Source: an uncultured Bacteroidales bacterium (GTDB lineage: Bacteria > Bacteroidota > Bacteroidia > Bacteroidales > JAUNSR01). From it: a stretch of 64,000 nucleotides of DNA. The DNA is taken from positions 40,742-104,741 of the forward strand of contig CAMTOJ010000002.1 in assembly GCA_947074145.1 (NCBI GenBank). Direction: 5' to 3'. The position numbers and the translations under genes are program-made. The notes under the pieces are model-generated. The model saw nothing but the letters and a program-made list of their open reading frames with translations, searched no databases and had not been told where the DNA came from. Positions within the stretch are counted from its first letter, which is position 1. Each line of letters opens with the position of its first letter. Positions 2,043-44,437 of this stretch are shown here, piece after piece.

Positions 2043-2955
2043 GTAAAAAAGTGAATGTTTAAATAAGACAAATAGATCACAAAAAAACTATATGTGAAAA
2101 ATCAATATTAATACCAAAGTAATGTAAATCATTAACACTTATTTGTTTCAATTTAAAACCTTGTTATATTATTGATAATAAGGATTGTGTGTATAATGTG
2201 TGGTGAGGTGTCTTTAATTGAGTCCTTTTGGGTTATAAATTGTAAGCAATAGAATCGAAATGCTGTTTAACATAAAACAAATGTTGTATTAACTTTACAA
2301 GAGAATAGTATTTAGAGTATAATTTTGATATCACTTTATAACGTTTTTTATTCTATATTTATTCTAATAATATCATCAAAATGTTTATTTTTGTGCTATA
2401 AAATATTCAGTTATTTTGAGATATTGAGAATATTTTGGTTTGCAAATTGGAACTAAACCTAACAAATTGTAATAAGTTTGAGGAAAAATCTGAAAAAGTG
2501 CTAAACTGAAAAGATGTCGGATTGAGAGATGAAATGTTAGAAGTTTTATTTTTCAAAATTGTAGATACAATACATATCCGAAAAGATTGAGCTATGGTAT
2601 GGCGTAACATAAAAAAGTGCCTGCCTGATTTTTTTAAAGAGTGGATAAATCGCATTTGCTAATAAAGAATAAGCAATAAGTTTATATCGATAAGTTTATA
2701 CCTTGTGCGGGTACTAAGAATTTAATTAATTGACGTTTGCTATGAGTTTTTATTTTAATAATATGAGATTAAATCTCGCCATTAAAGAATTTAAGTGTTG
2801 TTCATTAATCTGGCGTAACATAAAACGACGCCCATTTTAATATTACTATTTGCTTTTATATAAGTAGCGTTTTCTCCAAAACGCCTACCTGAACCAAATG
2901 ATTCATACTAAGAAATCTATTTATTATTAACATTCATAATTAATCAAAAAGAAAG

Positions 2956-5901
2956 ATGAGAAGATTTATTCTCTTGATCATTTCTTTTTCAATGTTGAGC
3001 ATCTCTATGACTTATGCCCAGTCGTTTACATTGCGTGGTAATGTATTTGATTCGGAAACAAAAGAGCCATTGATCGGAGCTTCAATTATCGAAAAAGGAA
3101 CGACAAACGGGGTTACAGCGGATTTCGATGGAAATTACTCGCTGGAAATTAATGGTGACAATGCCATCGTTCAGATCTCCTACATCGGCTACAAAAGTGT
3201 GGAGAAGGCAGTATCTGCCTCAGCTGCAAGGTTTGATGTAGCTATGCAGAGTGATGCACACATGGTGGACGAGGTTGTTGTTGTAGCATACGGTGTACGT
3301 AAGAAAGGAACAATTGCCGGATCTGTATCGGTAGTAAAAGGCGAGAAACTTGAGTCGGTGCCAACAGCAAGTTTTGACCAGGCACTTCAGGGTCAGACAC
3401 CGGGTCTTCAGGTAGTTGCTAATTCGGGAGAACCAAGTGCGGCAGCTAATTTCCAGATTCGTGGTGTTAACTCGATCAATGCAGGAACTGCGCCTTTGTT
3501 CATCATGGATGGGATAGCAATTTCATCAGATGACTTTTCCTCGGTAAATCCAAGTGATATAGAAAGCATATCTGTTTTGAAAGATGCGTCTTCTACATCT
3601 ATTTATGGAGCTCGTGCAGCCAATGGTGTTGTGGTTATTACAACAAAACGCGGTAGAATGGGAGATAACGGAAATATCTCAGTTCGTGCACAGTATGGTT
3701 TCTCAAAACTTGCTTATGGTAAGTGGAATCAGATGAATACAAAAGAGCGTCTTGATTATGAAGAGGAGATTGGTATGAGAATAGCAGGTCAGTATGACCG
3801 CGAATTACTTGAGCGTACAAATGTAGACTGGAGAAATGTGGTCTATAATGATGCAGCACCATTTAAGAATATTGAAATCTCTGCAAGTGGAGCTACAAAT
3901 AGATTCAATTATTATGTATCAGGTAATATGTATGATCAGGAAGGTATTGCTATCGATTCTGATTTCAAACGTTATACAGTAAGAGCAAATCTTGAAGCTA
4001 AAGTTAATGACTGGTTTAAAATTGGTACAAACACCACTTTTGCTTATGAAGATATTAGAGAGGCAAATGATGGTTCTTATACAACCGTAACGCCTATCTC
4101 TGCATCGAGATTTATGCGTCCTTACTGGTCGCCTTATGCTGAAGACGGCTCTATCGCAAGTCTGTTAAACGGAACATGGCTTGGATCTAACACTAATCCT
4201 CTTGACTGGTCGGCAAACAATCCGTCAAAGAACAACAAATCAAAATTGCTATCAACCATATTTGCTGAAATCTCTCCAATAGAGGGATTAACAATCAGAA
4301 CAATGGGAGGTGTCGACTTTGTTGATTTCAGAGGCGATTCATATTCTAACCCTTCATATGTTCCAAATTATGGAGAGGGTTATGTGGGTCGTGCATTCGA
4401 ACGTTACTACAATCTGACATGGACAAATACAGCTAATTATAATATGACTATTTCTGATAGCCATAATTTTAATTTCCTGATAGGACAGGAAGCTGTTAAC
4501 AATCAGATGGAATCATTTAGCAGTTCTGCAATTGGTCAAACGAATGATCTTCTTTTAAATCTTTCAGCGGGTACTACTGCAAACAATCCGAATGATAGTT
4601 ATGTAGGAGCAACCTATCTTTCTGTTTTTGGTAGAGCGGAATATAACTACGAAAACAAATATTACACAGACCTTTCTGTTCGTCGTGACGGATCATCAAG
4701 ATTTGGAAAAAATTCACGTTGGGCAAACTTCTGGTCTGTAGGAGCTATGTGGGATCTTACAAGTGAAGAATTTTTAAATACAAATTCATGGGTTAACAGC
4801 CTACAGCTTTCCGCAAGTGCGGGAACATCCGGTAACTCATCTATTCCTGCTTATGATCATCTTGCTCTTGTAAGTGCAGGTCCTCAATACGGACTTGGTT
4901 CAGCCTCAATGCCGGGTATTGCTCCGTCGTCACCGGGTAATGAAGACCTTACATGGGAAAAACTTTTCACAACAAACGTTGCTGTTAAAGGTAGCTTCTT
5001 TGGAAGAGTTAATATGGGTGTTGAATTCTATAATAAGAATACAACAGATATGTTGATGTCGGTTCCTGTCTCAATGGTTAACGGTTATTCTTTCCAGTGG
5101 GAAAATGTAGGATCGATGTACAATAGAGGTGTTGAACTTGATTTTAATGTTGATGTAATCAGAACAAGAGGTTTTGTATGGAATGTAAATGCAAATGCAT
5201 CATATAATAAAAACCAAATCACTTCACTTTACAATGACAGAGATGAGTACGAAATCACAAATACCAATCTTTATCTTAAAGTGGGACACTCATACGGAGA
5301 ATTTTTCATAAACCGTTTTGCCGGAGTAAATCCAGCAAACGGAGATCAGCTTTGGTATGACAGGGACGGAAACGTTACTACTGAATTTAACGAAAATGAC
5401 AAGGTGCTTGTTGGAAAAAGCTATAATGCTCCGTGGTCAGGTGGTTTTGGAACAACATTATCATACAAAGGTCTCTCTTTAAGCGCACAGTTTAGCTGGG
5501 TTGCGGATAGATATATGATGAACAATGACAGATATTTTGATGAAAGTAACGGAACATTTGCGACTTACAACCAGTCGAATAAACTTCTTTACGATCGTTG
5601 GAAACAGCCTGGAGATGTTACATCAATTCCTCGTCATGGTGAGATTACACAGTTTGACGACCGATTGTTGGAAGATGCATCATTCTTGCGTCTTAAAAAC
5701 CTAACTCTAAGCTATAACTTCGATAAGAAATTACTTCAAAAGACAAAAATTATAAAAGGGGTACGAGTTTACGGACAGGGACAAAACCTGTTGACGTTTA
5801 CTGCTTTCGAGGGAATGGATCCGGAATCAACAGCTAATGTATATCAGGCTGCTTATCCGATGACACGTCAGTTCTCTGTAGGGGCTGAAATTACTTTCTA
5901 A
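2956..5901 (+). CDS. SusC/RagA-family TonB-dependent outer-membrane transporter
   Basis: 981 aa. Signal peptide, N-terminal carboxypeptidase-regulatory-like domain ('LRGNVFDSETKEPLIGASI...TDFDGNYSL'), plug ('VVVVAYGVRKKGTIAGSV', 'ISVLKDASSTSIYGARAANGVVVITTKRG'), C-terminal 'FSVGAEITF'. No STN / anti-sigma signalling extension. Confidence 0.95.
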   Translation: MRRFILLIISFSMLSISMTYAQSFTLRGNVFDSETKEPLIGASIIEKGTTNGVTADFDGNYSLEINGDNAIVQISYIGYKSVEKAVSASAARFDVAMQSDAHMVDEVVVVAYGVRKKGTIAGSVSVVKGEKLESVPTASFDQALQGQTPGLQVVANSGEPSAAANFQIRGVNSINAGTAPLFIMDGIAISSDDFSSVNPSDIESISVLKDASSTSIYGARAANGVVVITTKRGRMGDNGNISVRAQYGFSKLAYGKWNQMNTKERLDYEEEIGMRIAGQYDRELLERTNVDWRNVVYNDAAPFKNIEISASGATNRFNYYVSGNMYDQEGIAIDSDFKRYTVRANLEAKVNDWFKIGTNTTFAYEDIREANDGSYTTVTPISASRFMRPYWSPYAEDGSIASLLNGTWLGSNTNPLDWSANNPSKNNKSKLLSTIFAEISPIEGLTIRTMGGVDFVDFRGDSYSNPSYVPNYGEGYVGRAFERYYNLTWTNTANYNMTISDSHNFNFLIGQEAVNNQMESFSSSAIGQTNDLLLNLSAGTTANNPNDSYVGATYLSVFGRAEYNYENKYYTDLSVRRDGSSRFGKNSRWANFWSVGAMWDLTSEEFLNTNSWVNSLQLSASAGTSGNSSIPAYDHLALVSAGPQYGLGSASMPGIAPSSPGNEDLTWEKLFTTNVAVKGSFFGRVNMGVEFYNKNTTDMLMSVPVSMVNGYSFQWENVGSMYNRGVELDFNVDVIRTRGFVWNVNANASYNKNQITSLYNDRDEYEITNTNLYLKVGHSYGEFFINRFAGVNPANGDQLWYDRDGNVTTEFNENDKVLVGKSYNAPWSGGFGTTLSYKGLSLSAQFSWVADRYMMNNDRYFDESNGTFATYNQSNKLLYDRWKQPGDVTSIPRHGEITQFDDRLLEDASFLRLKNLTLSYNFDKKLLQKTKIIKGVRVYGQGQNLLTFTAFEGMDPESTANVYQAAYPMTRQFSVGAEITF

Positions 5902-5921
5902 CAGAAAAAGTGACATTAACG

Positions 5922-7436
5922 ATGAAAAAAATAAAAATATATTCTTTAATACTACTGATGGCTGTGTCATCATCTTGCTCGGATTTTCTGACAGAGATGC
6001 CAAACGGATCTATCCCTCAGGATGAAGCAATCAAGAATCTGGATGATTGCAGCGCTGCTGTCGTAGGAATCTATAGTGCATTCAAAAGTAGTGCATTATA
6101 TAGCGGTTACATGACACAGTTGCCGGATCTACAAGCAGATATGGGATATCTGTCTCTTTCAAATACCGGAGTATATGCAGATGTTTACAGATGGAATATC
6201 AATCCATCAACCTCTCAGATTGTGAGCATATATTCAGGACTATATCAGATCATAGCACGTTGTAACTTCTTTTTCGATTATACTGACAGAGTACGTGAAT
6301 CGTTGACTTCAGAATCAGATATTCAAATACTTGAAAGACGTATGGGTGATGTTTATTTTGCTCGCGCTCTTGCTTACTCAGAATTGTTAAGACATTTCTG
6401 CGAACCTTATACAGAAGAAACAGCAGATGATGAAAACTCAGGAGTTTCTATTTCTCTAAGTTATGTAAATACATCAAAAGCTATCAAACGCTCTACTTTA
6501 AGAGAATCGTATGCTCAGGTTATTTCAGATCTTGATAATGCAGAGAAATTTATTCCTGCATCAAGAGCGGTTGCTGATTCTGAATATTTCAGTCCTGGTT
6601 CTGTATTGGCTCTCAAATCAAGAATTTATCTATATATGGGAGAGTATCAGAAGTCTGTCGATGCAGCTAATAGCATTATCAAAAGTGAGGTTTACGAACT
6701 TGCTGATGCCGTTTATGCTACAAGCACAGGATATTCAGATTATGGAAACATGTGGGTTTTCGATTCCAGCGATGAGATTATCTGGAAAGTTGCAATGACA
6801 ACAACCGACAGAGGTGGATCTCTTGGTAGAATTTTCCTTAACTACAATGGCGCATCTTATGCACCTGATTATGTAGTGCCTAATGTGTTGATAAACCTTT
6901 ATGATGATGCAGACTATAGATATATCTATTTCTTCTCAGAAATCACAGCAGCTGACGGAACAATGCCTACTGTCTTGAGAAAATATATTGGTAATCCTAA
7001 TATTGACTCAGGTTCTACAAGATATTTCACCAACATGCCAAAGGTATTCCGTCTTTCTGAAGTTTATCTTAATCGCGCTGAAGCTAATTATAATTTAGGA
7101 AATTATTCAGCTGCACTTAATGACCTTACTTCAATCAGAAGAAAAAGAATCCAAGGTTACGGATCTGCTTCAGGTTCAGGAACAGGTATTCTTGATGAGA
7201 TCAAAGAGGAAAGAATCAGAGAATTATATATGGAAGGTTTCCGCCTTTATGACTTGAAAAGATGGGGCGATGAAATCAAACGCACAAAGCAGCTATATAC
7301 AATTGATGGAGCTAATGAAAATGAATTGAATATTTTGCCAACTGATGCAGCATATCGCTTCACTACCTGGCCGATACCACAACATGAGATTGAAGCTTCA
7401 AATAATGTAGTAGTAGGAAATAAAAGCAACTATTAA
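5922..7436 (+). CDS. SusD/RagB-family nutrient-binding outer-membrane lipoprotein
   Basis: Follows SusC by 20 nt. Lipobox 'AVSSSCSDF'. TPR-like SusD motifs ('RAEANYNLGNYSAALNDLTSIR', 'ERIRELYMEGFRLYDLKRW'). I prefer ATG 5922 (MKKIKIY) over the listed GTG 5910. Confidence 0.9.
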   Translation: MKKIKIYSLILLMAVSSSCSDFLTEMPNGSIPQDEAIKNLDDCSAAVVGIYSAFKSSALYSGYMTQLPDLQADMGYLSLSNTGVYADVYRWNINPSTSQIVSIYSGLYQIIARCNFFFDYTDRVRESLTSESDIQILERRMGDVYFARALAYSELLRHFCEPYTEETADDENSGVSISLSYVNTSKAIKRSTLRESYAQVISDLDNAEKFIPASRAVADSEYFSPGSVLALKSRIYLYMGEYQKSVDAANSIIKSEVYELADAVYATSTGYSDYGNMWVFDSSDEIIWKVAMTTTDRGGSLGRIFLNYNGASYAPDYVVPNVLINLYDDADYRYIYFFSEITAADGTMPTVLRKYIGNPNIDSGSTRYFTNMPKVFRLSEVYLNRAEANYNLGNYSAALNDLTSIRRKRIQGYGSASGSGTGILDEIKEERIRELYMEGFRLYDLKRWGDEIKRTKQLYTIDGANENELNILPTDAAYRFTTWPIPQHEIEASNNVVVGNKSNY

Positions 7437-7457
7437 TAATAAAGAAACTAACAGACA

Positions 7458-8330
7458 ATGAATAAAATCATTAAAAATTTAGCTTATATGGCAGTTGCGG
7501 CTTTGGGTTTGGTATCATGTAAATCCGAAGATGTAACATACGAAGGACCTAAGTTCGTTATGTTTGCCGACACTACTATAACAATGCCTGTATTCAGCGA
7601 TGATCCTGTTTACGATCTTTATGTTGTAACAACACAAACAAGTTCCGTTGACAGAAATTACGCCGTAGATGTAATGTCAGATGGATCTTCTGCAATCAGA
7701 GGGTATCATTATGATTTTGTTGATGGTAGCAATAATATAACTATTAAGGCTGGAGAAAATAAAGCACCGGTAAAAATCAAGAGCTATTATGATAATATTA
7801 GTTTTCAGGATTCATTGGTTCTAAAACTTGAACTTGTAGCACCTAAGGATGAATATATCGATTGCTATTCGACTCATACAGCGATAGAATTTACAAAAAT
7901 AGCTCCTTTTGATATAAATACATTTGTAAAAGAGAATGGTGAACACGCAAGAATGACAGCGACTTGGCCTTTGTCAACAACAGCTACTCGTTACTATCGT
8001 CAGTCATTGATAAGAGCAAATGATAGATTTGTTATCAAAAATATGATCAATCCGGGATTTGATATTATAGCTCATTTTGATAATTCGGATCCTGCAAATC
8101 CAAAAATGAAAGTGCCTGAGCAGAGAATGTTCATCGACGGCAATTATGGAGAGGTTTATTGTCGCACAGTAAATTCTTTTCCTTCTTATTTTGTCGCTCA
8201 CGAACATTATTTCGTGCTTTATCTTGAAGTCTACGTTCCTCAAATCGGAAGTTTCGGAGTTTACTCTTATACTATCGAAAGTATTACAGAGGATGTTTAT
8301 ATGAACAACGTTAATGGAATTATCAAGTAA
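7458..8330 (+). CDS. Operon-encoded lipoprotein of unknown function (possibly DUF4843-like)
   Basis: 290 aa, lipobox 'GLVSCKSEDV', 21 nt after susD. The family guess rests only on position and size. Confidence 0.6.
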   Translation: MNKIIKNLAYMAVAALGLVSCKSEDVTYEGPKFVMFADTTITMPVFSDDPVYDLYVVTTQTSSVDRNYAVDVMSDGSSAIRGYHYDFVDGSNNITIKAGENKAPVKIKSYYDNISFQDSLVLKLELVAPKDEYIDCYSTHTAIEFTKIAPFDINTFVKENGEHARMTATWPLSTTATRYYRQSLIRANDRFVIKNMINPGFDIIAHFDNSDPANPKMKVPEQRMFIDGNYGEVYCRTVNSFPSYFVAHEHYFVLYLEVYVPQIGSFGVYSYTIESITEDVYMNNVNGIIK

Positions 8331-8355
8331 TAACACTATTCAAGAGTAAACTTAT

Positions 8356-10206
8356 ATGAAAAATATAAATAGAATATTCGCTTCACTTTTAGCTGTCAAT
8401 TCTTTATTCTTCTTTCCCTCATGTGATAAGGAGGAAGAAAAAATAGTATTGACATTTGAAGTACCTGCTGCTACTACAGGTTTGGTATTCATGGCCGAAG
8501 GTTCTGATTCACAAACAATAGAATTTGTAGCAAACGGACAATGGAATGCAACATATTCAGCAAGTTGGTTTAATATAACCCCGAGAACTGGAAACGGTGC
8601 GGGAGTTATTGAAGTAACAGTGGTGGATAACGCTACGTTCGATCAGCGCCAGGGAGATATCACTATCAGAGATACAGAAACCGGAATTTCACAGAAAGTG
8701 ACTGTAACTCAGGGAGCAAAAGATCAATCTCTTGTTTTCAGCAAAGAGATGGCTTCGCTTACTATAAGTGATGTTTGTATATCGGATACGGTAAATGTAG
8801 CAGGAAACTATGCATGGGAGATATCCGAAATATCTGAATGGTTATCATATGAATTTATTGAGGAGAATCTTTCACAAAATTCAAGAACCATTGTCTTTTA
8901 CGCAGATATGACAAAACTTTCTCATATCGAGGAAACAGGAGAAGTGGTGTTCAAGGGTAACAACAATAATATCAAAGATACCCATTATCCGGTTTATTAT
9001 CCGGGATTCGAACCTATAGTATCATTGAAGTCAGGATTAGGATTAAGCTTTATTGATGTTGTTGATAATACTTTTGATTTTAATATTTCAAGTTCAAATG
9101 TTATCAGAATCGGACTCGAAATCACTGCTAATTATGAATATGAATTGACAGAACTTGATCATAGAATTACTCGTGTTCAGAATCAAAACGAAGATGTAAA
9201 GATTCAGAGCGGAGTATCGGCAAAAAGAAAGTATTTCGTTTATTATGATGCCGATAGTATCTATACAGAAGATATTTATGCAAATATCACTCTTAGAGCT
9301 ACTGATCTTGAAGGAATTGACGATGTTAATTTAAAGGGACGTGTAAAAGGAGTGGGAAGTGAATACTTATCTACCGATTATAGTAATTTCAAAAGAAATG
9401 ATATCGGTTTTCTATATTTAGAAGGAGGATCAAGAGATTCTAATGGAGAAGCAACAGGTTATCTTAGTGAGACTTTGAAAATATCTACATCTTATCCATT
9501 GTCGAATAATGAATCTGAATGGCCTTTTTCTATAATTGTTACTGAGTGTAAAGGCGGAATCCCTTTTTATTCTACAACACAAATAAGAGATTCATGGGTC
9601 TATGTAACAAAGATGCCTGAGGAAACAAAAGTGCCAATCGCTACTACTGATTTTCAAGTAAGAGTAGGAGTAAGAGGTGAAGATGAATCTGATTTTGCAC
9701 CTTCTAACGAAAGACAGTTTGCATTATTTATTATTCCGAAATCATTAGGAGTTGTATCAGCTGAAGAACTATTTGATGAAAACGGAACAGTGAAGAGAGA
9801 CTATTCATCTTTATTCCGTGCAATTTCGCAGAATGGTGTTGAAGCAACATATAACTTCATTTGTCCGCAGATGCCGGAAAATATTCTTGAAATTGACGCT
9901 AATACAAAAGAAGCTTATATCGAAGTTTATGATGAAAATGTTCCGGTTTCTTTAGGATTCAGATTCTTTACAGATTATAGAATCTTGAACAACAGAGTAC
10001 TTGGTAAAGGGCGTCCTTACAATGATCTTATCATTGAAGATGTAGAATATGAATTCAAAGATCTTAAAAACACTTTGAAAATCACATTCAATCCTAATAC
10101 AACATCATCGGAAAGAAGAGGAACTTATGGATTCGGTATCAATTTCTATAATGAATATCTACCAGGCTATAGCTTCGATATAATACAAAAAGCCTCAAAC
10201 GAATAA
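8356..10206 (+). CDS. BACON-domain surface lipoprotein
   Basis: 616 aa, lipobox 'FFPSCDKEEE'. BACON-like segment 'SDSQTIEFVANGQWNATYSASWFNITPRTGNGAGVIEVTVVDNATFDQRQGDITI...KVTVTQ', and a second degenerate copy ('NVAGNYAWEISEISEWLSYE'). Confidence 0.8.
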   Translation: MKNINRIFASLLAVNSLFFFPSCDKEEEKIVLTFEVPAATTGLVFMAEGSDSQTIEFVANGQWNATYSASWFNITPRTGNGAGVIEVTVVDNATFDQRQGDITIRDTETGISQKVTVTQGAKDQSLVFSKEMASLTISDVCISDTVNVAGNYAWEISEISEWLSYEFIEENLSQNSRTIVFYADMTKLSHIEETGEVVFKGNNNNIKDTHYPVYYPGFEPIVSLKSGLGLSFIDVVDNTFDFNISSSNVIRIGLEITANYEYELTELDHRITRVQNQNEDVKIQSGVSAKRKYFVYYDADSIYTEDIYANITLRATDLEGIDDVNLKGRVKGVGSEYLSTDYSNFKRNDIGFLYLEGGSRDSNGEATGYLSETLKISTSYPLSNNESEWPFSIIVTECKGGIPFYSTTQIRDSWVYVTKMPEETKVPIATTDFQVRVGVRGEDESDFAPSNERQFALFIIPKSLGVVSAEELFDENGTVKRDYSSLFRAISQNGVEATYNFICPQMPENILEIDANTKEAYIEVYDENVPVSLGFRFFTDYRILNNRVLGKGRPYNDLIIEDVEYEFKDLKNTLKITFNPNTTSSERRGTYGFGINFYNEYLPGYSFDIIQKASNE

Positions 10207-10224
10207 CTATAATTAGAAATAATA

Positions 10225-12864
10225 ATGAAATTCTTTAATAAAATATATTTATTAATAGCCTTATTAGGTTTTTCTATCTTCTCGTCTTGTAAAGACGAGA
10301 AGATGATGGAAGAGATTTCTGATATGGGTTATGTTCAGGTAAGAATATTACCTGAAATGACTACAAGGTCGATCACCCTTGAAACACTTGGTGATATCAA
10401 GAAGGTCGAACTGTCGCTTCTTTATAAAGATATGAAGGTAGTTCAGACAGTAACTATGTCTGGCATTGTTGATGCCATCGATTATGGTATCACTTCAGAG
10501 AGACTACAACTTGCAGCAGGAGAGTATACTCTTTTGAGCTATCGTTTGTTAGGTTCAGTTGTGTTAGGAGAAAGCGAACCTCAGGAACTAATGACAATAT
10601 ATCCTACTGAAGCCGCATACTTCAATATCGTTCAGGGTCAAATCCATGAACTTGATCTTGAAGTGTCAACTAAACTTCGAGGAAAAGTATCATTCATGCT
10701 TGAAAAAGATTTTACAAATTATCAGGAAGAGATGGATAAGGTTAATAATGAAACAAGAGCTACTACAGCTGCTCCTGAACTTTTCAGATATGACCTTATG
10801 CGCGATGTGGATATTTATGTGAAGAAAAAAGGCTCTAATGAAAGACCGGCTCTTTTATCTCTAACTTCATATGCTACAAATGCGGAAAGATTCCGTCACA
10901 CAGATACTATTTCTCTTGAAGCAGGTGATTATGAGATTACAAGTTATATGCTTTATACTAATAATCGAGTTGAAGTGATATTGGCAAATGATCTTACTGA
11001 TGTTTATTTTACGGTTGAACCAAACCAAATGAACAGAGCATCAATGGCAATCAGATATCCTGAAAATATGTATGCTATCAAAGATTATATTGCTTTATAT
11101 AATATTTGGAGAGCTCTTGATGGCGAGAACTGGCAATATACAGGATATTATTATCCATCTAATGCAAACTGGAGATTTAAAAACAGACCTATAGATGAAT
11201 GGGGCGCACAACCGGGCGTAACAATGAACTCCCGCGGACGTGTTATCAGTGTCAATGTAGGATCTTTCAATCCTTGTGGTGATGTTCCTTCTTGTTTAGG
11301 AGATTTGACGGAACTAAACAATTTATGGTTAGGAATGAATAGTGATGTTGAGATTGTAGATATTATGGATGAGTCATTATTCTACTCATTAGATAGATCT
11401 ATACTTGTTGATGAAGGAGTTGATATTATTGAAGAAAGAGAAAACATTGTAAGAGAAGAACTTTCTATCAGACATCACCAAAAACATAAATATACTCTAC
11501 TTGACGAATCAGAGAGAGTAATCAAAACTAACTTTGCAAGAACGTTTAGCAATAAGTATATTTCCAACAATACGATAACAACAAAAACAGGAATCGTTAG
11601 CCCGAAACCTAAAACAAATCGTATCAAAAGTATTCCTGCCGAAATCGGTAATTTGAAGAATCTTACTGTTCTTTATATCTCTAACGGTTTTGTAAGTGAA
11701 TTGCCGGAGACTCTTGCAGATCTTCCTAAGCTTACAGACGTAGAGTTGTATAACTGTAACTTTACAGAATTCCCTGAAGTTTTGGCAAAAATGCAAAAAC
11801 TGATTTTCCTTAACTTCAGTGCTAATCTTTCTATTCCGGAAGATAAATTTAATAAGGGAATTGACAATTTCCTTGCAACGTCACCTGAATTGCAGATCTT
11901 CTTTGCAACTGATAATAATTTGTCAGAATTCCCAATGAATATCCTTAAAGCAACTAAAATGGGATATGTGGATTTCTCTTATAATTATTTGACAGAACTT
12001 CCGAATCTTGAAAGAGCACTTGCTCCTGTTAAAGCATTTTTTGATTATAATAAGATTACAAAAATTCATGATAAATTCTGTAATACAGACGATATAGAAA
12101 ATATTAGTTTTTCTAATAATTTCTTAACTGAGATTCCAAACTTATTTGGGAACGGATTAGGTTCAGAAACAAAATATACAATGTCATCTGTCAATTTCAC
12201 AGCAAATCAGATTACATCTTTTGCTCCGGGATTTGCAGGAATTCGTACTTCTACACTTGATTTGACAAGCAATCCATTAGGAAGAGGTGGTCGTCTTTTC
12301 CCTGATGCTCTGGCTGATTCGAAATCTAAGATTTCATATCTTATTATGGATCAATGTGAACTTGACACATTGCCAAATTCAGCATTTAAGAATATGACAA
12401 TCCTTGAAGCATTGCAGGTAAAAGGAAATAGATTAAAGAATTTCCCTGAAGTATTTACTGTTGAGGAGATGCCTTATTTATCTGGACTTGATATCAGTTA
12501 TAATGCATTCAGATCATTACCAATTCAGCCTCTTTATATTCATAATTTGAATAAACTGTTTATGTTGAGTCAGCATGACCTTGACAGAAAAGGAAATCCA
12601 TACCGTTGCATGACAGAATTGGTTTCCGGACTTAACAAACATCCGGCTCTTAAATATCTTGATGTTTCAGGAAATGATATCCAGAGAATCTCAGCAGGTG
12701 ATTTTCCTGGTGGATTATTCGGATTTAATATCAGAAACAATCCGAATATTGAAGTTACAGTTTCTACAGTTGCTTGTAACTATATCGGATTAGGTTATTA
12801 CAGTTTCCTTTATGATGCAACACAGAACATTCAGGGATGTGCTTATATCGAATTAGAGGATTAA
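10225..12864 (+). CDS. Leucine-rich-repeat (LRR) surface lipoprotein with two N-terminal beta-sandwich-like modules
   Basis: 879 aa, lipobox 'IFSSCKDEK'. Long run of LRRs, e.g. 'IPAEIGNLKNLTVLYISNGFVSELPETLADLPKLTDVELYNCNFTEFPEVLAKMQKLIFLNFSAN'. Repeated N-terminal 'AGEYTLLSYRL' / 'AGDYEITSYML' modules. Confidence 0.85.
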   Translation: MKFFNKIYLLIALLGFSIFSSCKDEKMMEEISDMGYVQVRILPEMTTRSITLETLGDIKKVELSLLYKDMKVVQTVTMSGIVDAIDYGITSERLQLAAGEYTLLSYRLLGSVVLGESEPQELMTIYPTEAAYFNIVQGQIHELDLEVSTKLRGKVSFMLEKDFTNYQEEMDKVNNETRATTAAPELFRYDLMRDVDIYVKKKGSNERPALLSLTSYATNAERFRHTDTISLEAGDYEITSYMLYTNNRVEVILANDLTDVYFTVEPNQMNRASMAIRYPENMYAIKDYIALYNIWRALDGENWQYTGYYYPSNANWRFKNRPIDEWGAQPGVTMNSRGRVISVNVGSFNPCGDVPSCLGDLTELNNLWLGMNSDVEIVDIMDESLFYSLDRSILVDEGVDIIEERENIVREELSIRHHQKHKYTLLDESERVIKTNFARTFSNKYISNNTITTKTGIVSPKPKTNRIKSIPAEIGNLKNLTVLYISNGFVSELPETLADLPKLTDVELYNCNFTEFPEVLAKMQKLIFLNFSANLSIPEDKFNKGIDNFLATSPELQIFFATDNNLSEFPMNILKATKMGYVDFSYNYLTELPNLERALAPVKAFFDYNKITKIHDKFCNTDDIENISFSNNFLTEIPNLFGNGLGSETKYTMSSVNFTANQITSFAPGFAGIRTSTLDLTSNPLGRGGRLFPDALADSKSKISYLIMDQCELDTLPNSAFKNMTILEALQVKGNRLKNFPEVFTVEEMPYLSGLDISYNAFRSLPIQPLYIHNLNKLFMLSQHDLDRKGNPYRCMTELVSGLNKHPALKYLDVSGNDIQRISAGDFPGGLFGFNIRNNPNIEVTVSTVACNYIGLGYYSFLYDATQNIQGCAYIELED

Positions 12865-12889
12865 TAAAAAATAAATTGACAATTTTATT

Positions 12890-14572
12890 ATGAAACAATT
12901 TTCAAAAATAAAATCAGTTTTAATGCTCCTTTTTATAGGATCCCTGGTGATTCTTACATCATGTAAAGATTCAGATGATGATAAAATCACTGGTTTTGAT
13001 GTAAATGAAAGTGAGATGATTTTTACTGAAAATGGAGGTTTACAGACTTTCAAAATAACTACCGGTTATGCATGGAGTGCACAGTCGAATGCAGATTGGC
13101 TTATGGTATCTCCTGCTACGGGTGTAGGTTCGGCAGAATGTGAAGTAAAAGTTGATTCTTCTTATCTGTATAGTGAACGTAAAGCACAGATTCTTATTGA
13201 AACGGAAAATGGAGCGAAAATGATAGAGATCAATCAATTCGGGTTTGAAAAAGCTATTCGTATTGAAGAACCTTCTGTTTCAATTCCTCACTACAAAAGA
13301 CTTGATGAAGCGTTTTTCGAAGTCAACATAAGTTCTAATGTAGCTTATGAAATAATTATATCAGACGAAGATCAGGAATGGTTGACATTAGACGGAGATA
13401 TTACCACTTATGATCCGACTACTGCTACTCCAAGAAAACAGACTTATAAGTTTAAATATGGAGTACACAGTAATTTCCGTCAATCCCGAAAAGGTAATAT
13501 AGAATTTCGTCAGACAGGTGTAGCTGAACCTATTTCATCGATTGTTGAAGTTGAGCAAAATGCTGCTCCTAAGATTGTTCCATCAAGAGCAGGAGACTCT
13601 TTGGCTCTTCTTGCAATTCAGTCACAACTTCAGGTATATGGAGGCGGTTGGGAATCAAGCCGTCCGATGACTCACTGGGATGATATAAATCTTGAAAGTA
13701 TTGATTACGTATATTATGATGAAGATCTTGGTATTAGCAAGGATACAACAGAGATGCGTGTAACAGGCGCTAGATTCTTCTTCTTCTTTACAGAGGAGTC
13801 TCTTCCTGTAGAGGTTAAATATCTAACAGAGATCGAAACGTTGATTTTCCAGGGTAATGCCAACCGTTCGAGACATACAATTGATCTTGGATCTGAAGTA
13901 ACAGAACTTAAAAATCTTAAGAGTCTGGCGATTAATGGTTACGGAATAAAGAGTTTACCAAAAGAGATGATAGAAATGGATAATCTTGAAGAATTATCAA
14001 TCTATGCAAATAACTTCCTTGAGTTCCCTCTTGATATTATAACCAAAATGAAAAATCTAACATATTTTGATTTTTCTAATCAGAGAATTACAGAAGGTAT
14101 CACTTCTCTTGCCGATATACCTGCAGGATATGATCCTGATAACATCGGTTTAAGAGGTACAATTCCTGTAGAATTGTTCAATATGCCTAAGATTGAATAT
14201 CTGTATTTGTCGCATTGTTATCTTGAAGGTGAATTACCTACTTTACCTGTTGGCTCACATCCTCAATTACGTCGCTTTACAGCAAATGGTAACCGTTTGA
14301 CTGGCGATATTCCTGAATGGATATTACAGCATGAACGTCTTGCTTGTTGGGATCCATATGTACTTCTATTCACTCAGGAAGGAATGGATTCACAAGGAAA
14401 CCTTGCAGGATTCTCTAATGAACCGGGACGTCTTCCTAATCCTGATTGTCCGGATGATGAAGAAGATACAAAATCGTATATCATGAGATCGTCGGGTAAT
14501 GACTTTAAGAATGATGATAAATTACCTCTAACAGGAAATTGGGGTGAATATAAAATACAATTTAAAAAATAA
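12890..14572 (+). CDS. BACON + LRR surface lipoprotein
   Basis: 560 aa, lipobox 'ILTSCKDSDDD'. BACON-like 'GGLQTFKITTGYAWSAQSNADWLMVSPATGVGSAECEVKV...ILIETENG...INQ'. C-terminal LRRs including plant-type 'LRGTIPVELFNMPKIEYLYLSHCYLEGELP...NRLTGDIPEWI'. Confidence 0.85.
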   Translation: MKQFSKIKSVLMLLFIGSLVILTSCKDSDDDKITGFDVNESEMIFTENGGLQTFKITTGYAWSAQSNADWLMVSPATGVGSAECEVKVDSSYLYSERKAQILIETENGAKMIEINQFGFEKAIRIEEPSVSIPHYKRLDEAFFEVNISSNVAYEIIISDEDQEWLTLDGDITTYDPTTATPRKQTYKFKYGVHSNFRQSRKGNIEFRQTGVAEPISSIVEVEQNAAPKIVPSRAGDSLALLAIQSQLQVYGGGWESSRPMTHWDDINLESIDYVYYDEDLGISKDTTEMRVTGARFFFFFTEESLPVEVKYLTEIETLIFQGNANRSRHTIDLGSEVTELKNLKSLAINGYGIKSLPKEMIEMDNLEELSIYANNFLEFPLDIITKMKNLTYFDFSNQRITEGITSLADIPAGYDPDNIGLRGTIPVELFNMPKIEYLYLSHCYLEGELPTLPVGSHPQLRRFTANGNRLTGDIPEWILQHERLACWDPYVLLFTQEGMDSQGNLAGFSNEPGRLPNPDCPDDEEDTKSYIMRSSGNDFKNDDKLPLTGNWGEYKIQFKK

Positions 14573-14577
14573 TTAAG

Positions 14578-16269
14578 ATGATCAATAAGATAAAATACAC
14601 ACTTGTAATATGCCTGGCAGTTTGCCTGGGCATATTTACAAGCTGCTCTGATGATGATAAGGATTTATCTCCTTCTCTTGGAGAGAATCAGGGAGAGGTG
14701 ATATTTAGTTTTGCACGTATCAATACTTATCATGTAGATGATCTGCTTGATATAAAGACAATAAAAGTAACATTGAAAAAAGATGGAAAAGAGATAACTC
14801 TTCCTTCTTATGAGATGTTTGGGACTAAGGATTCGGTAGCAACAAAAGCGATAGCTGTTGATGCAGGTTCTTATGCTTTGTATAAATATATCGCATTTGA
14901 TAATAGAGGCGATATGCTTTATGAAGCTTATCCGGAAGATGAGGAGTATTTTGAAGTAAGATCAGGAGAACTTTTCCAGTTTTATTTCCCGATTAAAATT
15001 CGTGTTGATATATCAACTTCTTTATTGAAAAACAAACTTCTTGGAATGTGTCAGGAAATTTGGGGTAATGATACCATAAAATGGCCAAAGACATGGAGAG
15101 AATATAACAATGAACCACGTACATGGGAAAATCTTTACTGGGAACTTGACGGATATAATAATGCAGCCTATATCTCAGGTATAAGATTTGATGAGACATT
15201 TAAAGGGATGACAAAACTTCCTCAATCTCTGTTTGGAATGGTTTATATGACTAATATTGATATAATAAATCTTCCTGAATTCACTGATCTTGGTGAAAAC
15301 ATCGCTGATCTTAATATCAATAGTCTTTATCTTGAGAATACAGGAGTTAAAGAGTTTCCGAAAGAGTTCGGAAAGATGAGAAATCTTTATAGTCTTACGG
15401 TAGTTAATTGTCCTATTACTAAGATACCTGAGTCAATAGGAGAGATTTCAACAATGAACTCACTTCACATTGAAAATGCAGATATTACAGAGGTCCCTTA
15501 TGATCTTGTAGAGAAATTGGATAAATACAGAATGTTCAATCTGAAGAATACTAAGATTACTTCATTACCTGATAACTTCTTTACAGCTTTGAAAATTGTT
15601 TCGACTGTCGATCTTTCAGGGAATAAAGGTCTTTCTGTTTTACCATCACAGATTAATCAGGGTCAGAATAATCTGAGAGGACTTAATTTATCTGATTGTT
15701 CGTTTACTTCTATACCGGAAATTACGAAAGTGGCAAAAATCACACATCTGACGATGAATAATAATGAGTTAACTTCATTTGCATCTGAAGATATGTCGCC
15801 TTACTTTGAGGTATTGAACCTTAACGGTAATAATATATCAACTTTCCCATCATTGACTAATGATGTTTTGGTTGAGCTAACTTTAAGCGGAAATCCTATC
15901 ACTGTATTACCTGATTTATCAGGTTATCCACAACTTGCAGTTTTTGGTTTGGCAAGTACCGGAATTGAACTTATTCCGGATTCATATTTTGCATCGAATC
16001 CTTATCTGTCATATTTGGATCTAAGTAATAATGCTAATCTTACAAATGTATCAGAAAATGCAGGATTCACTATGGAAACTTATGATGATATTGTTGACGG
16101 AGTAACTGAGACAAAAGAAAGACCACAATATCTTTCTAAACTGGAGGTTAATGATTGCCCTGAACTAAAATGGGTGATTCCGGCATCTTGGTTACCAAGA
16201 CAGGTAAACGGTCCTAACAACGGACTTTTCTTGAATAATCAAAATTCATCGGGCGTTATTGTCCGATAA
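14578..16269 (+). CDS. LRR surface lipoprotein
   Basis: 563 aa, lipobox 'IFTSCSDDDKD'. Starts 5 nt after the previous gene. N-terminal module with 'AGSYALYKYIAF', then more than 10 LRRs ('LYLENTGVKEFPKEFGKMRNLYSLTVVNCPITKIPESIGEISTMNSLHIENADITEVP'). Confidence 0.85.
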   Translation: MINKIKYTLVICLAVCLGIFTSCSDDDKDLSPSLGENQGEVIFSFARINTYHVDDLLDIKTIKVTLKKDGKEITLPSYEMFGTKDSVATKAIAVDAGSYALYKYIAFDNRGDMLYEAYPEDEEYFEVRSGELFQFYFPIKIRVDISTSLLKNKLLGMCQEIWGNDTIKWPKTWREYNNEPRTWENLYWELDGYNNAAYISGIRFDETFKGMTKLPQSLFGMVYMTNIDIINLPEFTDLGENIADLNINSLYLENTGVKEFPKEFGKMRNLYSLTVVNCPITKIPESIGEISTMNSLHIENADITEVPYDLVEKLDKYRMFNLKNTKITSLPDNFFTALKIVSTVDLSGNKGLSVLPSQINQGQNNLRGLNLSDCSFTSIPEITKVAKITHLTMNNNELTSFASEDMSPYFEVLNLNGNNISTFPSLTNDVLVELTLSGNPITVLPDLSGYPQLAVFGLASTGIELIPDSYFASNPYLSYLDLSNNANLTNVSENAGFTMETYDDIVDGVTETKERPQYLSKLEVNDCPELKWVIPASWLPRQVNGPNNGLFLNNQNSSGVIVR

Positions 16270-16331
16270 TGAATATAATCCTGATTATTGTATTAATCCG
16301 GGATTTTGATAAATCTTAATTAATAGACAAA

Positions 16332-16388
16332 AGAGATAACATCAGTTGAATTTCAACTATGTTATCTCTTGGTTTTTAAAGCAATAGA
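16332..16388 (+). terminator. Rho-independent terminator closing the SusC/D-LRR operon
   Basis: AGAGATAACAT ... ATGTTATCTCT perfect 11-bp stem followed by GGTTTTT. Confidence 0.8.
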
Positions 16389-16460
16389 TAAACATTATTT
16401 ATATAAACTAATAATATTTATCCGAATTATTCAATTTCATATTTTCAATAAAATAGCACA

Positions 16461-17504
16461 ATGAAAAAGAGTATTATTTTCTTACCGGCCATAGCTTTAT
16501 TATTTTCATGTAATAATGATATCGAAGATACTTTGGTTGGAGAAACTTCAGTACCATCAATATGGCAACACTTTCATATGGTAGATTTGCATAATCTACA
16601 GAAATCTACAAAATCGGTAACTATCAATCAGGATAATGGATTTTATAATGTGGATCCTTGTGTTATTAATTTTGACCAACAAGGTAAGATTGAGAAATTT
16701 CGTATAGGTGGTGCTATTATGCTTGATAGAAGAGAGGATGAGATAGATTCTTTTCTACATAGTGGATTTTCAAATCTTGCAGAATACACATATGAGTATA
16801 ATGGAGATGCTCAATTATTGAATGTATCTGTAAATGATGAAGGATATTTATATGGATATGATTTTACATATTCTCAGCATGGGAAATATATCCCTGCTAT
16901 ATTTCCGGTAGGGAATCTTCCTATTTATTTAATCAAAAATCTTTCACAGATTACGACAAAGGATGATACATCTTCAAATATAGAAACTTATATCTATAAC
17001 GAACAAACGCAAGTTGCTACCTATAAACGCACTCATGCATGGTTGGGAAGAGAGATAGAGATAAATTTCATTTATGGTAGTTCTCCTTATCCTTTGGAAA
17101 AACAAGTGAAGGTAACTCAAAGAGGAGAAACTATACTTCAAGGAAAATGTGAATACACCTTCGATTCTAATGGAAATCTTCTTGAAGAGTACACCTCTCT
17201 TTCAGATGTAATGAATCAATCTAATATAACGAAAATTAAATTTTCCAAAGACTATCTTCTTGAAATAACTTCAATAGAAAAAGAAGGTAAGATTTATAAT
17301 TATGAAAGAGATTCACAAAGAAGACTTGTATCGATCAGTATTTTGGAAAATGGCATTCCTGTCGATATAGAGGAAACAATTACTTATACAGAGCATAATG
17401 ATGTAGATGATTGGACAAAAGCTGTTCTGATACTTAATAATGAGGTTAATTCGAATCATTTCTTTGATGAAGTAACAACTACAAGAGAAATCTTATATTG
17501 GTAA
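16461..17504 (+). CDS. Hypothetical lipoprotein with YD/RHS-like repeat motifs
   Basis: 347 aa, lipobox 'LLFSCNND'. Recurrent 'YTYEYNGDAQLL', 'YTFDSNGNLLEEY', 'YNYERDSQRRLVSI' motifs resembling YD repeats. Has its own upstream gap and terminator. Confidence 0.6.
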   Translation: MKKSIIFLPAIALLFSCNNDIEDTLVGETSVPSIWQHFHMVDLHNLQKSTKSVTINQDNGFYNVDPCVINFDQQGKIEKFRIGGAIMLDRREDEIDSFLHSGFSNLAEYTYEYNGDAQLLNVSVNDEGYLYGYDFTYSQHGKYIPAIFPVGNLPIYLIKNLSQITTKDDTSSNIETYIYNEQTQVATYKRTHAWLGREIEINFIYGSSPYPLEKQVKVTQRGETILQGKCEYTFDSNGNLLEEYTSLSDVMNQSNITKIKFSKDYLLEITSIEKEGKIYNYERDSQRRLVSISILENGIPVDIEETITYTEHNDVDDWTKAVLILNNEVNSNHFFDEVTTTREILYW

Positions 17505-17575
17505 TTCTTATTCTACCATAAAATTTTAGATTTATCAATTACTTTTCATCAAATAATTAGATTATATAAAATAAT

Positions 17576-17613
17576 AAAACCCTTCCTCTTTCATATGAAA
17601 AAGGAAGGGTTTT
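17576..17613. terminator. Bidirectional terminator between convergent genes
   Basis: AAAA-CCCTTCCTCTTT / AAAAAGGAAGGG-TTTT stem with one mismatch, flanked by an A-run and a T-run. Confidence 0.8.
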
Positions 17614-17635
17614 ATTATTTTATTTTTTGATATGA

Positions 17636-21564: not shown

Positions 21565-23175
21565 ATGAGAAAATCTTTAGTTCTTTTAAGCTCGGCCTTT
21601 ATGTTGGCGGGTTTAATTACATCATGTTCTGATAAGGAAGAGTCTTTGATTTCTACTCAGGAAGAGGCTGCTTATTTTAGTACATCTTTGAGTATTTCAA
21701 CTAATGAATTCAAAACTAGAACAGAGGTTGCAGATACAGAAGAAACTCCTATCTGTGATTGGGTGGATCTTGCAACTGCTGCTGCTTTTGATGCTTCTGC
21801 TTATGAGGCAGAAATCACAATTGTTTATCACAAAGGTTCCACAAGTGAATCACAACCTGATGTTTTTAAAGTTCCTATTAAGAATATCAAACTTGATGAT
21901 GACGGAGATCCTGTAGCTGTTACTGATCAATTTACTTTGATTAAACCTTTAACTAAACATGAATTGGTTGGTATAAAGATTGTTGATAATCAGGATAATG
22001 TTATTTTCTCTACTGTTAAAGAGGGTGCTCTTTATGCAAATCATATAAGAGAAGCTCATCTTATGCCATTGAGCATTTATGTGGGTATAGATGATACTGC
22101 AGAAGAAGGTACAGTAGAAAGAAAAGTTATCATCGATGATAAAGAAAAGACTCCTATTAAGACTTCTGTTCTTTGTGCATTTGAAGAAGAAGCTCCTAAC
22201 TTCGGATATTCACTATGGACATTCAATTTTGTAAGAGTTGTATGTATCCCTTATTCTGTAAATGTTAAGAAAGAACCTTGTGAATCTAATTCTAAAGACG
22301 TCTATGGAAAAACTAAAATTACTCTAAGTCGTGTTGACGGATCTGATACTTATGTTCATGAAAGTTCAACTCTATTTGACGAAGAAAGAGAAGAGGTAAT
22401 GGGTAAAATATGTTTCAACTATCAGGGTGATCAAGATTATAAAGAACAAGAATGGACTCTTAAACTTGAAATTTTCTTCTTAAGTGGAGCAACTGCTGTT
22501 ATTGAAAGCACTATCTCTTTGGAAGATCTTTGGAATTATAAAGAAAGCGGTTACTGGGTATATCCTAAAGGTACAATCTTTAATAAAGAAGATAATAATT
22601 ATGATCCTAAGGGATATATTCACTTTGATTTCTTTAATGTAGATCTTACTAAAGCAGGTGCAATCTCTAACCCTGAAGCTGACGGAACGTGGGAATTAGA
22701 AATTACTAAAGCTATTAATTGTTGCGACGATATTATTGCTTGTGAAGATGTAGAAGTGGACACTTCTTCTATTCAAGAATTTTATGCAGCAATAAAAGAC
22801 TTAACAGGTGAATGTGCATGGACTGGTGGAACTGTAGAAGATGGCGCTCTTTATATCAATGCAGGTCAGAAAATTACATCTCCTGTTTTTGAACTTGAAG
22901 AAGGTCAAATTATAAATGCTTTGGTAGAAAAATATGGAACAGAAATCGCAACACAAGAGGAATATTTCAAATTATATGATGCTTGTACAGATGCTCTGAT
23001 TATTAATGAAAAAGGAGACGAGGTTACAAGAAGTCTTTCCGGCCTTCAAGTCTATTCAATTAAAGCTAATTATAAAGGCAAATTTTATGTAACTCTTGAA
23101 GCAAGTGAACAAAATGATGGAAAAGCGTCAATCGTAAACTTTACTTTTAAAAAAGCACTTGAAGAAATCAAATAA
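21565..23175 (+). CDS. Lipoprotein of unknown function, paralog 1 of a tandem pair
   Basis: 536 aa, lipobox 'LITSCSDKEE'. Shares long blocks with 23339..25093, e.g. 'EEAPNFGYSLWTFNFVRVVCIPYSVNVK'. No family recognised. Confidence 0.8.
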   Translation: MRKSLVLLSSAFMLAGLITSCSDKEESLISTQEEAAYFSTSLSISTNEFKTRTEVADTEETPICDWVDLATAAAFDASAYEAEITIVYHKGSTSESQPDVFKVPIKNIKLDDDGDPVAVTDQFTLIKPLTKHELVGIKIVDNQDNVIFSTVKEGALYANHIREAHLMPLSIYVGIDDTAEEGTVERKVIIDDKEKTPIKTSVLCAFEEEAPNFGYSLWTFNFVRVVCIPYSVNVKKEPCESNSKDVYGKTKITLSRVDGSDTYVHESSTLFDEEREEVMGKICFNYQGDQDYKEQEWTLKLEIFFLSGATAVIESTISLEDLWNYKESGYWVYPKGTIFNKEDNNYDPKGYIHFDFFNVDLTKAGAISNPEADGTWELEITKAINCCDDIIACEDVEVDTSSIQEFYAAIKDLTGECAWTGGTVEDGALYINAGQKITSPVFELEEGQIINALVEKYGTEIATQEEYFKLYDACTDALIINEKGDEVTRSLSGLQVYSIKANYKGKFYVTLEASEQNDGKASIVNFTFKKALEEIK

Positions 23176-29293: not shown

Positions 29294-29296
29294 ATC

Positions 29297-30948: not shown

Positions 30949-30950
30949 AA

Positions 30951-33717: not shown

Positions 33718-33801
33718 CGAGGGATTAAGAATTAATTCAGTTTCTTTGTTTAATTAAATTAGGCTTTTAATATATACAACCTGTTTACCGTGCAAAATAT
33801 T

Positions 33802-44427: not shown

Positions 44428-44437
44428 AATGAATATT

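Follow-up and report, generated by a model that had tools for sequence, protein, structure and literature searches.

What does a SusC/SusD transporter import when the operon around it encodes no recognisable enzyme? Here we describe such an operon at positions 2956-16269 of the window, a stretch of 64,000 nucleotides (nt) of DNA from an uncultured Bacteroidales bacterium of the gut (contig CAMTOJ010000002.1, positions 40,742 to 104,741). Judged by gene content and synteny, the locus is a minority, eight-gene variant, without an S8 protease, of a Sus-like family that is conserved in the Bacteroidales. The family was already known, although uncharacterised, from loci of the type of Bacteroides thetaiotaomicron BT0206-14; what is new here is the protease-less eight-gene variant. 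We propose that the operon encodes a RagAB-like system for the acquisition of proteins or peptides, in which lipoproteins with leucine-rich repeats (LRRs) would act as capture modules and proteolysis would take place in trans, and we give this proposal about an even chance of being correct. We favour it because the transporters of the family are orthologous, most related loci encode a subtilase, the surveyed loci contain no carbohydrate-active enzyme (CAZyme), and the main LRR protein has a conserved concave face. The genes and the terminator of the locus are as follows (lengths in amino acids, aa).

2956-5901, + strand: susC, 981 aa (TIGR04056, 815 bits; Pfam)
5922-7436, + strand: susD, 504 aa (SusD_RagB and SusD-like_3)
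7458-8330, + strand: DUF4984/DUF4843 lipoprotein gene, 290 aa (Pfam)
8356-10206, + strand: BACON lipoprotein gene, 616 aa (Pfam)
10225-12864, + strand: DUF4458/LRR_10/LRR lipoprotein gene, 879 aa (Pfam, PDB match)
12890-14572, + strand: BACON and LRR lipoprotein gene, 560 aa (Pfam)
14578-16269, + strand: DUF4458-like and LRR lipoprotein gene (p563), 563 aa (Pfam)
16332-16377, + strand: intrinsic terminator-like hairpin and U-tract (folding, shuffle test)
16461-17504, + strand: YD/RHS-like repeat lipoprotein gene (p347), 347 aa (RHS_repeat/YD matches)

A conserved operon family of two types

The first-pass annotation of this DNA described seven genes on one strand, and our open reading frame (ORF) calls reproduced that layout, with intergenic gaps of 20, 21, 25, 18, 25 and 5 nt; the start of susD was called at the ATG at 5922, with the GTG at 5910 as an alternative. 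As in Sus-like systems generally, susC and susD are adjacent on the same strand, and they are followed by five presumably co-transcribed lipoproteins that are predicted to be surface exposed. The strong terminator that had been placed after the seventh gene was likewise recovered, as an interrupted stem of 17 bp (16332-16369) with a U-tract behind it that extends to 16377 (region z = -4.5 against shuffled sequences). The description of these seven genes as the entire operon had overlooked a conserved eighth gene, p347, which encodes a further lipoprotein and lies 191 nt 3' of the p563 gene, beyond the terminator.

A survey for operons that combine SusC/SusD with LRR lipoproteins, which the first-pass annotation had recommended, placed the locus in a large family. 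The 879-aa protein has 297 relatives in species-representative genomes (one genome per species), 80 of which were fetched; there are also about 40 clusters of full-length proteins at 29-44% identity. The identical protein occurs on at least 12 metagenome contigs with the same neighbours, and the closest relative (87%), in locus L010, belongs to a metagenome-assembled genome (MAG) of another uncultured Bacteroidales bacterium. Further hosts include Bacteroides (B. congonensis, B. caecigallinarum and B. nordii), Mediterranea, Alistipes, Tidjanibacter, Rikenellaceae, Cryptobacteroides, Muribaculaceae and Porphyromonadaceae. We called ORFs in 89 fetched loci and classed them against the window proteins, and 67 of these loci could be assigned to one of two types, A or B. 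Positions 1 to 6 are constant, namely SusC, SusD, a DUF4984 protein, a variable BACON/DUF5003 protein, an LRR protein with DUF4458 and LRR_10, and a BACON-LRR protein, and this order is kept down to 29% identity; the window operon has it, as do BT0206-14-type loci. SusC identity across both types is 53-71%, which shows that the transporters are orthologous, as typical SusC paralogues share far less identity.

The two types differ from position 7 onward. We assigned 21 loci to type A, of which 15 remain when the six contigs with the window's own 879-aa sequence are set aside. In this type, position 7 is a further LRR lipoprotein, the third of the operon (p563), and position 8 a YD/RHS-like repeat lipoprotein of about 350 aa (p347). 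In the Bacteroides members of type A, among them B. congonensis, the p347 gene abuts or overlaps the p563 gene (gap -43 to +5 nt); the conserved cluster thus consists of eight genes. Type B comprises 46 loci, including the Alistipes and Rikenellaceae members, and its position 7 is a lipoprotein of about 675 aa with Peptidase_S8 and Peptidase_S8_N domains in all 46, with invariant Asp, His and Ser columns. The nearest solved relatives of this subtilase are deseasin MCP-01, AprV2/BprV and mirolase, extracellular proteases that degrade matrix or collagen. The subtilase gene is followed by that of a DUF1573 protein and then, in 38 of the 46 loci, by that of a lipoprotein of about 153 aa, which was lipocalin-like in four of the six sequences scanned. 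A tblastn search of the 64-kb window found neither an S8 nor a DUF1573 gene, so that the pair of genes found in the BT0206-14 family is missing here, and no CAZyme was detected among the scanned proteins in or beside the roughly 67 related loci. As the first-pass annotation had pointed out, neither an enzyme nor a regulator is detectable in the window locus; the lack of an enzyme fails as a trait of the system as a whole, since its relatives normally carry a protease.

Three further observations concern individual members of the family. L011 and L028 lie on one contig (JAVVQG010000008.1) and L021 and L023 in one MAG (JAVVPN01), as paralogous copies of the whole operon, in one case separated by about 50 kb; the family has thus expanded within genomes. 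In L030 (Bacteroides nordii JCM 12987), the SusC, SusD and BACON-LRR genes are each broken into two ORFs, which reflects either a pseudogenised locus or frameshift errors in a draft assembly. Finally, some type-B operons are preceded on the same strand by a gene for a collagen-triple-helix/DUF4988 protein or by a lipoprotein-like gene with DUF4493/DUF6359 (L071, 50-2548; upstream ORFs of L042, L049 and L061).

The transporter pair and the likeness of its SusC to RagA

The window SusC consists of a CarboxypepD_reg-like N-terminus, a Plug domain and a barrel, and carries the TIGR04057 signature. The domain scan (Pfam) found no STN domain, in agreement with the first-pass annotation. Its best match among solved structures in a PDB search is RagA of Porphyromonas gingivalis (599 bits, E = 1.9e-178), and the other solved transporters score lower: 410 bits for the dextran importer, 301 for the levan importer, 212 for ButC and 138 for BT2264. 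The barrel can accordingly be called RagA-like, in the sense of a similarity score among six solved SusC-like transporters and not of a phylogeny. The PDB matches of SusD are led by 3mcx and 3kez, two structural-genomics SusD proteins of unknown ligand.

Accessory lipoproteins

Read from the five translations, the lipobox Cys is followed by acidic residues in every accessory lipoprotein of the seven-gene operon (VSCKSED, PSCDKEEE, SSCKDEK, TSCKDSDDD and TSCSDDDKD), as had been stated before. Acidic residues at this position are described as the export signal of Bacteroidetes lipoproteins (PMC5080379, PMC6222051, PMC10319031), and on this basis the five lipoproteins are predicted to be exported to the cell surface. 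Pfam also bore out the earlier assignment of BACON domains to two of them (616 and 560 aa) and of LRRs to three (879, 560 and 563 aa).

The 879-aa protein is the best understood of the set. Pfam finds two DUF4458 domains and an LRR_10 cap in it, followed after a variable linker by an LRR solenoid of about 400 aa, and the AlphaFold2 model (mean predicted local distance difference test score, pLDDT, 81) shows the corresponding two beta-sandwich domains, cap, disordered linker and solenoid. By both sequence and fold, it matches PDB entries 4ECN (BT_0210; full-length, Foldseek E = 1.3e-47, 27% identity) and 4ECO (BACEGG_03329), which are structural-genomics entries without an assigned function. 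Within the family of this protein, the concave "x" positions of the LRRs vary less than the remainder of the repeat region (entropy 1.33 against 1.75 bits, p = 0.0009), and the preservation of this face across genera suggests a conserved ligand. The first-pass annotation had raised the possibility that the ligand is a host molecule, which is pure speculation.

The 560-aa BACON-LRR protein is present in 70 loci. The 563-aa protein contains one weak DUF4458 domain in addition to its LRRs and is a distant paralogue of the 879-aa protein; we considered a recent duplication of the latter as its origin and ruled this out, as the two share 23-25% identity. None of the three has the features of an internalin- or BspA-type adhesin, in that each begins with a lipobox and Pfam found no Por_Secre_tail and no LRR_5 in them.

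The 290-aa protein is a DUF4984/DUF4843 protein with orthologs that reach 1.4e-57, is present in 65 loci, and has no PDB relative by sequence or profile search. The 616-aa protein evolves fast; it has an N-terminal BACON domain, two more BACON-like repeats and a beta-rich C-terminal part, and its ortholog consensus carries a repeated SN..W...P.W motif. When its family profile was compared with the PDB, the BACON regions alone aligned, with those of lipoproteins of glycoside hydrolase (GH) families 16 and 5. The p347 protein, with its YD/RHS-like repeats, evolves very fast. The PDB searches of the 616-, 290- and 347-aa families also returned a marginal lipocalin-like match (E = 0.017), weak matches to teneurin YD repeats, and a match to phage Mtd (E = 0.003) that we judged spurious.

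Could one of these proteins conceal an enzyme? At the level of sequence profiles, no cryptic catalytic domain was detected in the 290-, 616- and 879-aa proteins, the place where the first-pass annotation had thought one might hide. Similarly, Pfam found no catalytic family in 54 position-4 proteins, which contain solely BACON, BACON_2 and DUF5003, nor in 45 DUF4984, p563, p347 and small-lipoprotein sequences, which contain solely DUF4984, DUF4843, LRR families, DUF4458, RHS_repeat and Lipocalin_4. S8 is thus the one catalytic family among the scanned proteins of positions 3, 4, 7 and 8 and of type-B position 9.

Divergence at the 3' end of the operon

The window and L010 are collinear over 2323-15937 at a nucleotide similarity of about 78%, which resumes from 17618. 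In between, at 15938-17617, similarity is lost over the C-terminus of p563, the terminator and p347. The encoded proteins can still be aligned, with identities of about 50% for p563 and 35% for p347, and SusC is 89% identical between the two loci. This combination points to a terminal module, formed by the p563 C-terminus and p347, that is either unusually fast-diverging or has been swapped with a distant allele.

Proposed mechanism and its alternatives

We propose the following mechanism. The RagA-like SusC barrel and its SusD lid would form a TonB-dependent "pedal-bin" importer, around which six lipoproteins with acidic export signals (DUF4984, BACON, DUF4458-LRR, BACON-LRR, DUF4458-LRR and YD-repeat) would assemble into a surface complex. 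The beta-sandwich spacers of the BACON and DUF4458 domains may hold the LRR solenoids off the membrane, and the solenoids, like the surface glycan-binding proteins (SGBPs) of glycan systems, would be capture modules, here for a proteinaceous or peptide-bearing ligand. In most relatives, the co-encoded surface subtilase would then cut the captured substrate to importable peptides. In the lineage of the window, the cutting may fall to other members of the community or to a protease whose gene lies elsewhere, or the ligand may be small enough for direct import. Transcription would start about 560 nt upstream of susC and be controlled in trans, possibly via the leader motif TGGCGYAAYATWAAA described below.

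A protein-directed machine unrelated to glycans had been suggested by the first-pass annotation, and it gains support, although indirect, from the subtilase in 46 of 46 type-B loci, the RagA-like SusC and the absence of CAZymes. Several points weigh against it. The window variant lacks a protease, with no S8 gene in 64 kb, and the idea of a protein substrate is therefore borrowed from its relatives. BACON domains otherwise occur typically in lipoproteins that degrade glycans, and LRR domains are able to bind ligands other than proteins. RagA is the nearest of just six solved SusC-like transporters, and RagB ranks sixth among the matches of the window SusD, at 54 bits. The exclusion of enzymes from the 616-, 290- and 347-aa proteins holds at the level of sequence profiles, and the AlphaFold2 model of the 616-aa protein has a pLDDT of 31. 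Finally, in the one assay reported, cleavage of EspB was unchanged in a BT_0212 mutant (PMC6282197).

Three other explanations deserve attention. The first, which we consider unlikely, is a glycan- or glycoprotein-directed polysaccharide utilisation locus (PUL), for which a SusC/SusD pair and BACON domains are characteristic. Its enzymes would be encoded elsewhere, the BACON and LRR lipoproteins would bind carbohydrate or the glycan of a glycoprotein, and SusC/SusD would import oligosaccharides. The alignment of the BACON regions with those of GH16 and GH5 lipoproteins fits this explanation, as does the rank of the dextran importer as the second-best solved match of SusC, and BT0206-14 is itself listed as a PUL and reported to be co-induced with the capsule locus CPS2 when the regulon of a glycan-PUL extracytoplasmic function (ECF) regulator is de-repressed (PMC2709373). 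What tells against it is that the roughly 67 surveyed loci contain 46 subtilases and no CAZyme, that SusC is nearer RagA than the glycan importers (599 against 410 bits), and that BACON is now described largely as a spacer and not as a glycan binder (PMC11216935).

Alternatively, the LRR lipoproteins might primarily be adhesins or interaction factors like internalins and BspA, with SusC/SusD as a scaffold or as an unrelated pair, so that the operon would serve colonisation and not nutrition. At the level of the repeats, the arrays are similar to internalins, to the Leptospira LIC LRR adhesins and to type III effectors. Surface exposure of the lipoproteins is predicted, and the far faster divergence of the 3' end (p563 C-terminus and p347) is expected of exposed interaction surfaces. 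We nevertheless regard this as quite improbable: the genes stay strictly co-linear with a highly conserved SusC/SusD pair even between distant lineages, which speaks for a working transporter complex, the main LRR protein shows conservation and not diversification on its concave face, and the subtilase of most loci is better suited to substrate processing than to adhesion. It is also conceivable that the system imports a single folded small protein or signalling peptide, bacteriocin- or ubiquitin-like, for which the LRR proteins would be the specificity receptors. A SusC/SusD pair without CAZymes is reported to import a small protein in the case of ButCD and BfUbb (PMC11467351), the conserved concave surface suggests a single conserved ligand, and the window variant lacks a protease. 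ButC is a distant match (212 bits), six accessory lipoproteins together with the subtilase of the relatives exceed known toxin-receptor loci in complexity, and no candidate ligand gene is linked to the operon; we consider this explanation very doubtful. Protein or peptide acquisition through LRR capture modules thus remains the reading that we favour. More tentatively, and as a reading that is less likely than not, we suggest that BT0206-14-type loci are distinct and widespread "protein utilisation loci", composed of a RagA-like SusC/SusD pair, LRR counterparts of SGBPs and usually a surface subtilase, and that type A is a specialised derivative, a peptide scavenger or an importer of a specific small protein, with a rapidly diversifying terminal module.

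Upstream region and regulation

What controls the operon? The features of the upstream region are as follows.

2319-2460, + strand: conserved non-coding block, probable promoter (L010 alignment)
2386-2393, + strand: Bacteroidetes-type -7 box TATTTTTG (match to TAnnTTTG)
2600-2614, + strand: leader motif copy 1, TGGCGTAACATAAAA (exact 15-nt direct repeat)
2811-2825, + strand: leader motif copy 2, TGGCGTAACATAAAA (same repeat, 144 nt before the susC ATG)

When the 1-kb AT-rich region upstream of susC is aligned with L010, the block at about 2319-2460 is the sole one that is strongly conserved. Matches to TAnnTTTG occur at chance level in the window as a whole; the position of the -7 box within the conserved block suggests that transcription probably starts near 2400, which would give a leader of about 560 nt.

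Both copies of the 15-nt repeat in this leader are conserved in L010 (at 1273 and about 1482), and the motif also precedes susC by 213-218 nt in type-A loci of Bacteroides in which the proteins are just about 43% identical. Individual occurrences are at 2326 in L007, at 2281 in L012, and about 215 nt upstream of susC in L013, L014 and L018. There are 12 matches in 60 kb of upstream DNA where about 1.1 are expected, an enrichment of about 11-fold. The motif, TGGCGYAAYATWAAA, is thus present in type-A leaders of three separate lineages and is absent upstream of type-B operons. We considered that it might form an RNA hairpin and judged this less likely than a site for protein binding, as just a 3-bp GGC/GCC stem is constant and the 5' half is invariant where the 3' half varies. 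An unlinked regulator may use the motif as an operator or as an RNA-protein site.

The genes 5' of susC vary between loci (about 60 loci listed). Pairs of ORFs of about 190 and 370 aa upstream of some of them had the appearance of ECF sigma and anti-sigma genes, and Pfam identified them as rubrerythrin, DUF4493/DUF6359, flavin reductase, serine hydroxymethyltransferase, ribosomal protein L17 and superoxide dismutase. Among the ten upstream candidates from related loci that were scanned with Pfam, none was a regulator, and all were unrelated housekeeping genes. Likewise, Pfam and NCBIfam found no CAZyme, peptidase, sulfatase or regulator among the seven operon proteins and the products of the flanking genes. 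The operon accordingly lacks what is used to define a functional PUL, that is, at least one CAZyme (GH, polysaccharide lyase or carbohydrate esterase) or sulfatase, and a linked SusR, hybrid two-component system (HTCS) or ECF sigma/anti-sigma pair with an STN-bearing SusC. The lack of a regulator and of an STN domain, which the first-pass annotation had pointed out, is nothing out of the ordinary: BT0206-14 was also described as having no linked regulator, and 12 of 59 susCD loci in B. fragilis have no annotatable function.

Other features of the window

The genes on both sides of the operon are of the housekeeping kind, with DUF3822 and RsmD-like methyltransferase genes upstream and ABC exporter and cardiolipin synthase genes downstream. 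Rfam gave zero matches in the window at gathering thresholds, and scans of the window for sigma-70 promoters and terminators were at background level. A single regulator is encoded within 64 kb, at a distance of 17.5 kb from the operon. It is an AraC protein, and its gene (33790-34635) adjoins that of a 651-aa protein (34853-36808, - strand) with a CotH kinase domain, a ricin-type lectin domain and a Por_Secre_tail, which is cargo for type IX secretion and shows that the organism has a type IX secretion system (T9SS).

The window also encodes two peptidases of the M20 family, at 26938-28176 (+ strand) and 42970-44496 (- strand); they probably act on di- or tripeptides, fit with peptide catabolism and are unlinked to the operon. 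Four genes at 28325-31391 (- strand) encode an ArsP-type permease, a fusion of GNAT and a low-molecular-weight phosphatase/ArsC-like domain, a DsbD-like membrane protein and a 146-aa protein of unknown function, and possibly form a unit for organoarsenical or redox detoxification. Pfam gave no significant match for ORFs 48089-50578, 23339-25093 and 21565-23175 (829, 584 and 536 aa); the first is the neighbour of a gene for a DUF4114 and DUF4842 protein at 50801-52774.

Significance and relation to known systems

About a quarter of the susCD loci in Bacteroides have no recognisable glycan function, and the substrates that they transport are a long-standing gap. Alistipes, Rikenellaceae and Muribaculaceae share the family described here with Bacteroides. 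One member is found in B. thetaiotaomicron, which is open to genetic manipulation, and the family is represented by two crystal structures to which no function has been assigned. The combination of a near-universal subtilase, a RagA-like barrel and a conserved LRR face leads to the testable hypothesis that LRR receptors enable gut Bacteroidales to harvest a defined proteinaceous substrate. If so, the "utilisome" concept would be widened from glycans to proteins, and bacterial surface LRR lipoproteins would gain a role. As a natural variant without a protease, the window operon would be useful for separating the parts of the system that capture from those that process.

The closest known system is BT0206-14, which by its gene content is a type-B locus. 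The gene table of PMC10434189 lists BT0207 as SusD, BT0208 as DUF4984, BT0211 as BACON, BT0212 as an S8 serine peptidase and BT0213 as DUF1573, so that the order of positions 1 to 6 is that of the window, with BT0209 as the presumed lipoprotein of position 4. BT0206-14 was described in 2009 as an orphan PUL without a linked regulator, a further likeness, and its co-induction with CPS2 as following a pathway not then known that needs expression of the BT3983-88 Sus-like proteins (Martens et al., PMC2709373). The difference lies at the 3' end, where the window has the third LRR lipoprotein and the YD-repeat lipoprotein in place of the peptidase and DUF1573, with no DUF1573 gene nearby.

Loci with susCD and no CAZyme are common. 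In B. fragilis GS077, for which the 12 of 59 loci mentioned above were counted, four loci are linked to a peptidase (PMC11467351). The ButCD locus of B. fragilis also lacks CAZymes and has been proposed to handle a protein or polypeptide, and a peptidase gene is adjacent to it, as in the relatives of the window operon; however, this is a Zn-metalloprotease encoded upstream, and there are no LRR or BACON lipoproteins. Surface LRR arrays implicated in protein binding are also known from BspA, InlJ, the internalins and the Leptospira LIC LRR proteins. Those proteins are mostly of the LRR_5/BspA type or anchored by T9SS or LPXTG signals and are products of stand-alone genes, whereas those of the window are lipoproteins with DUF4458 or BACON spacers, encoded in a transporter operon. 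A literature search found no publication that ties LRR lipoproteins to SusC/SusD function.

RagAB, likewise a TonB-dependent pair of the SusC/SusD type without glycan enzymes, is reported to import oligopeptides generated by proteases (bioRxiv 10.1101/755678), and its proteases, the gingipains, come from elsewhere. The window SusD is not particularly RagB-like, and import of peptides by the window system would be a parallel with RagAB that we infer. RagAB consists of two genes and has no accessory lipoproteins. With SusCDEFG and the levan and dextran utilisomes, the window operon shares a SusC/SusD core that is followed in the same operon by surface lipoproteins with an acidic export signal. 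Those classical systems contain a GH or lyase, regulation by SusR, HTCS or ECF proteins, and SGBPs built from carbohydrate-binding modules or Ig-like domains, and the window operon has none of these. In their place, we propose, LRR solenoids serve as the binding modules, and the accessory proteins of the window plausibly bind the substrate, as they do in the classical utilisomes.

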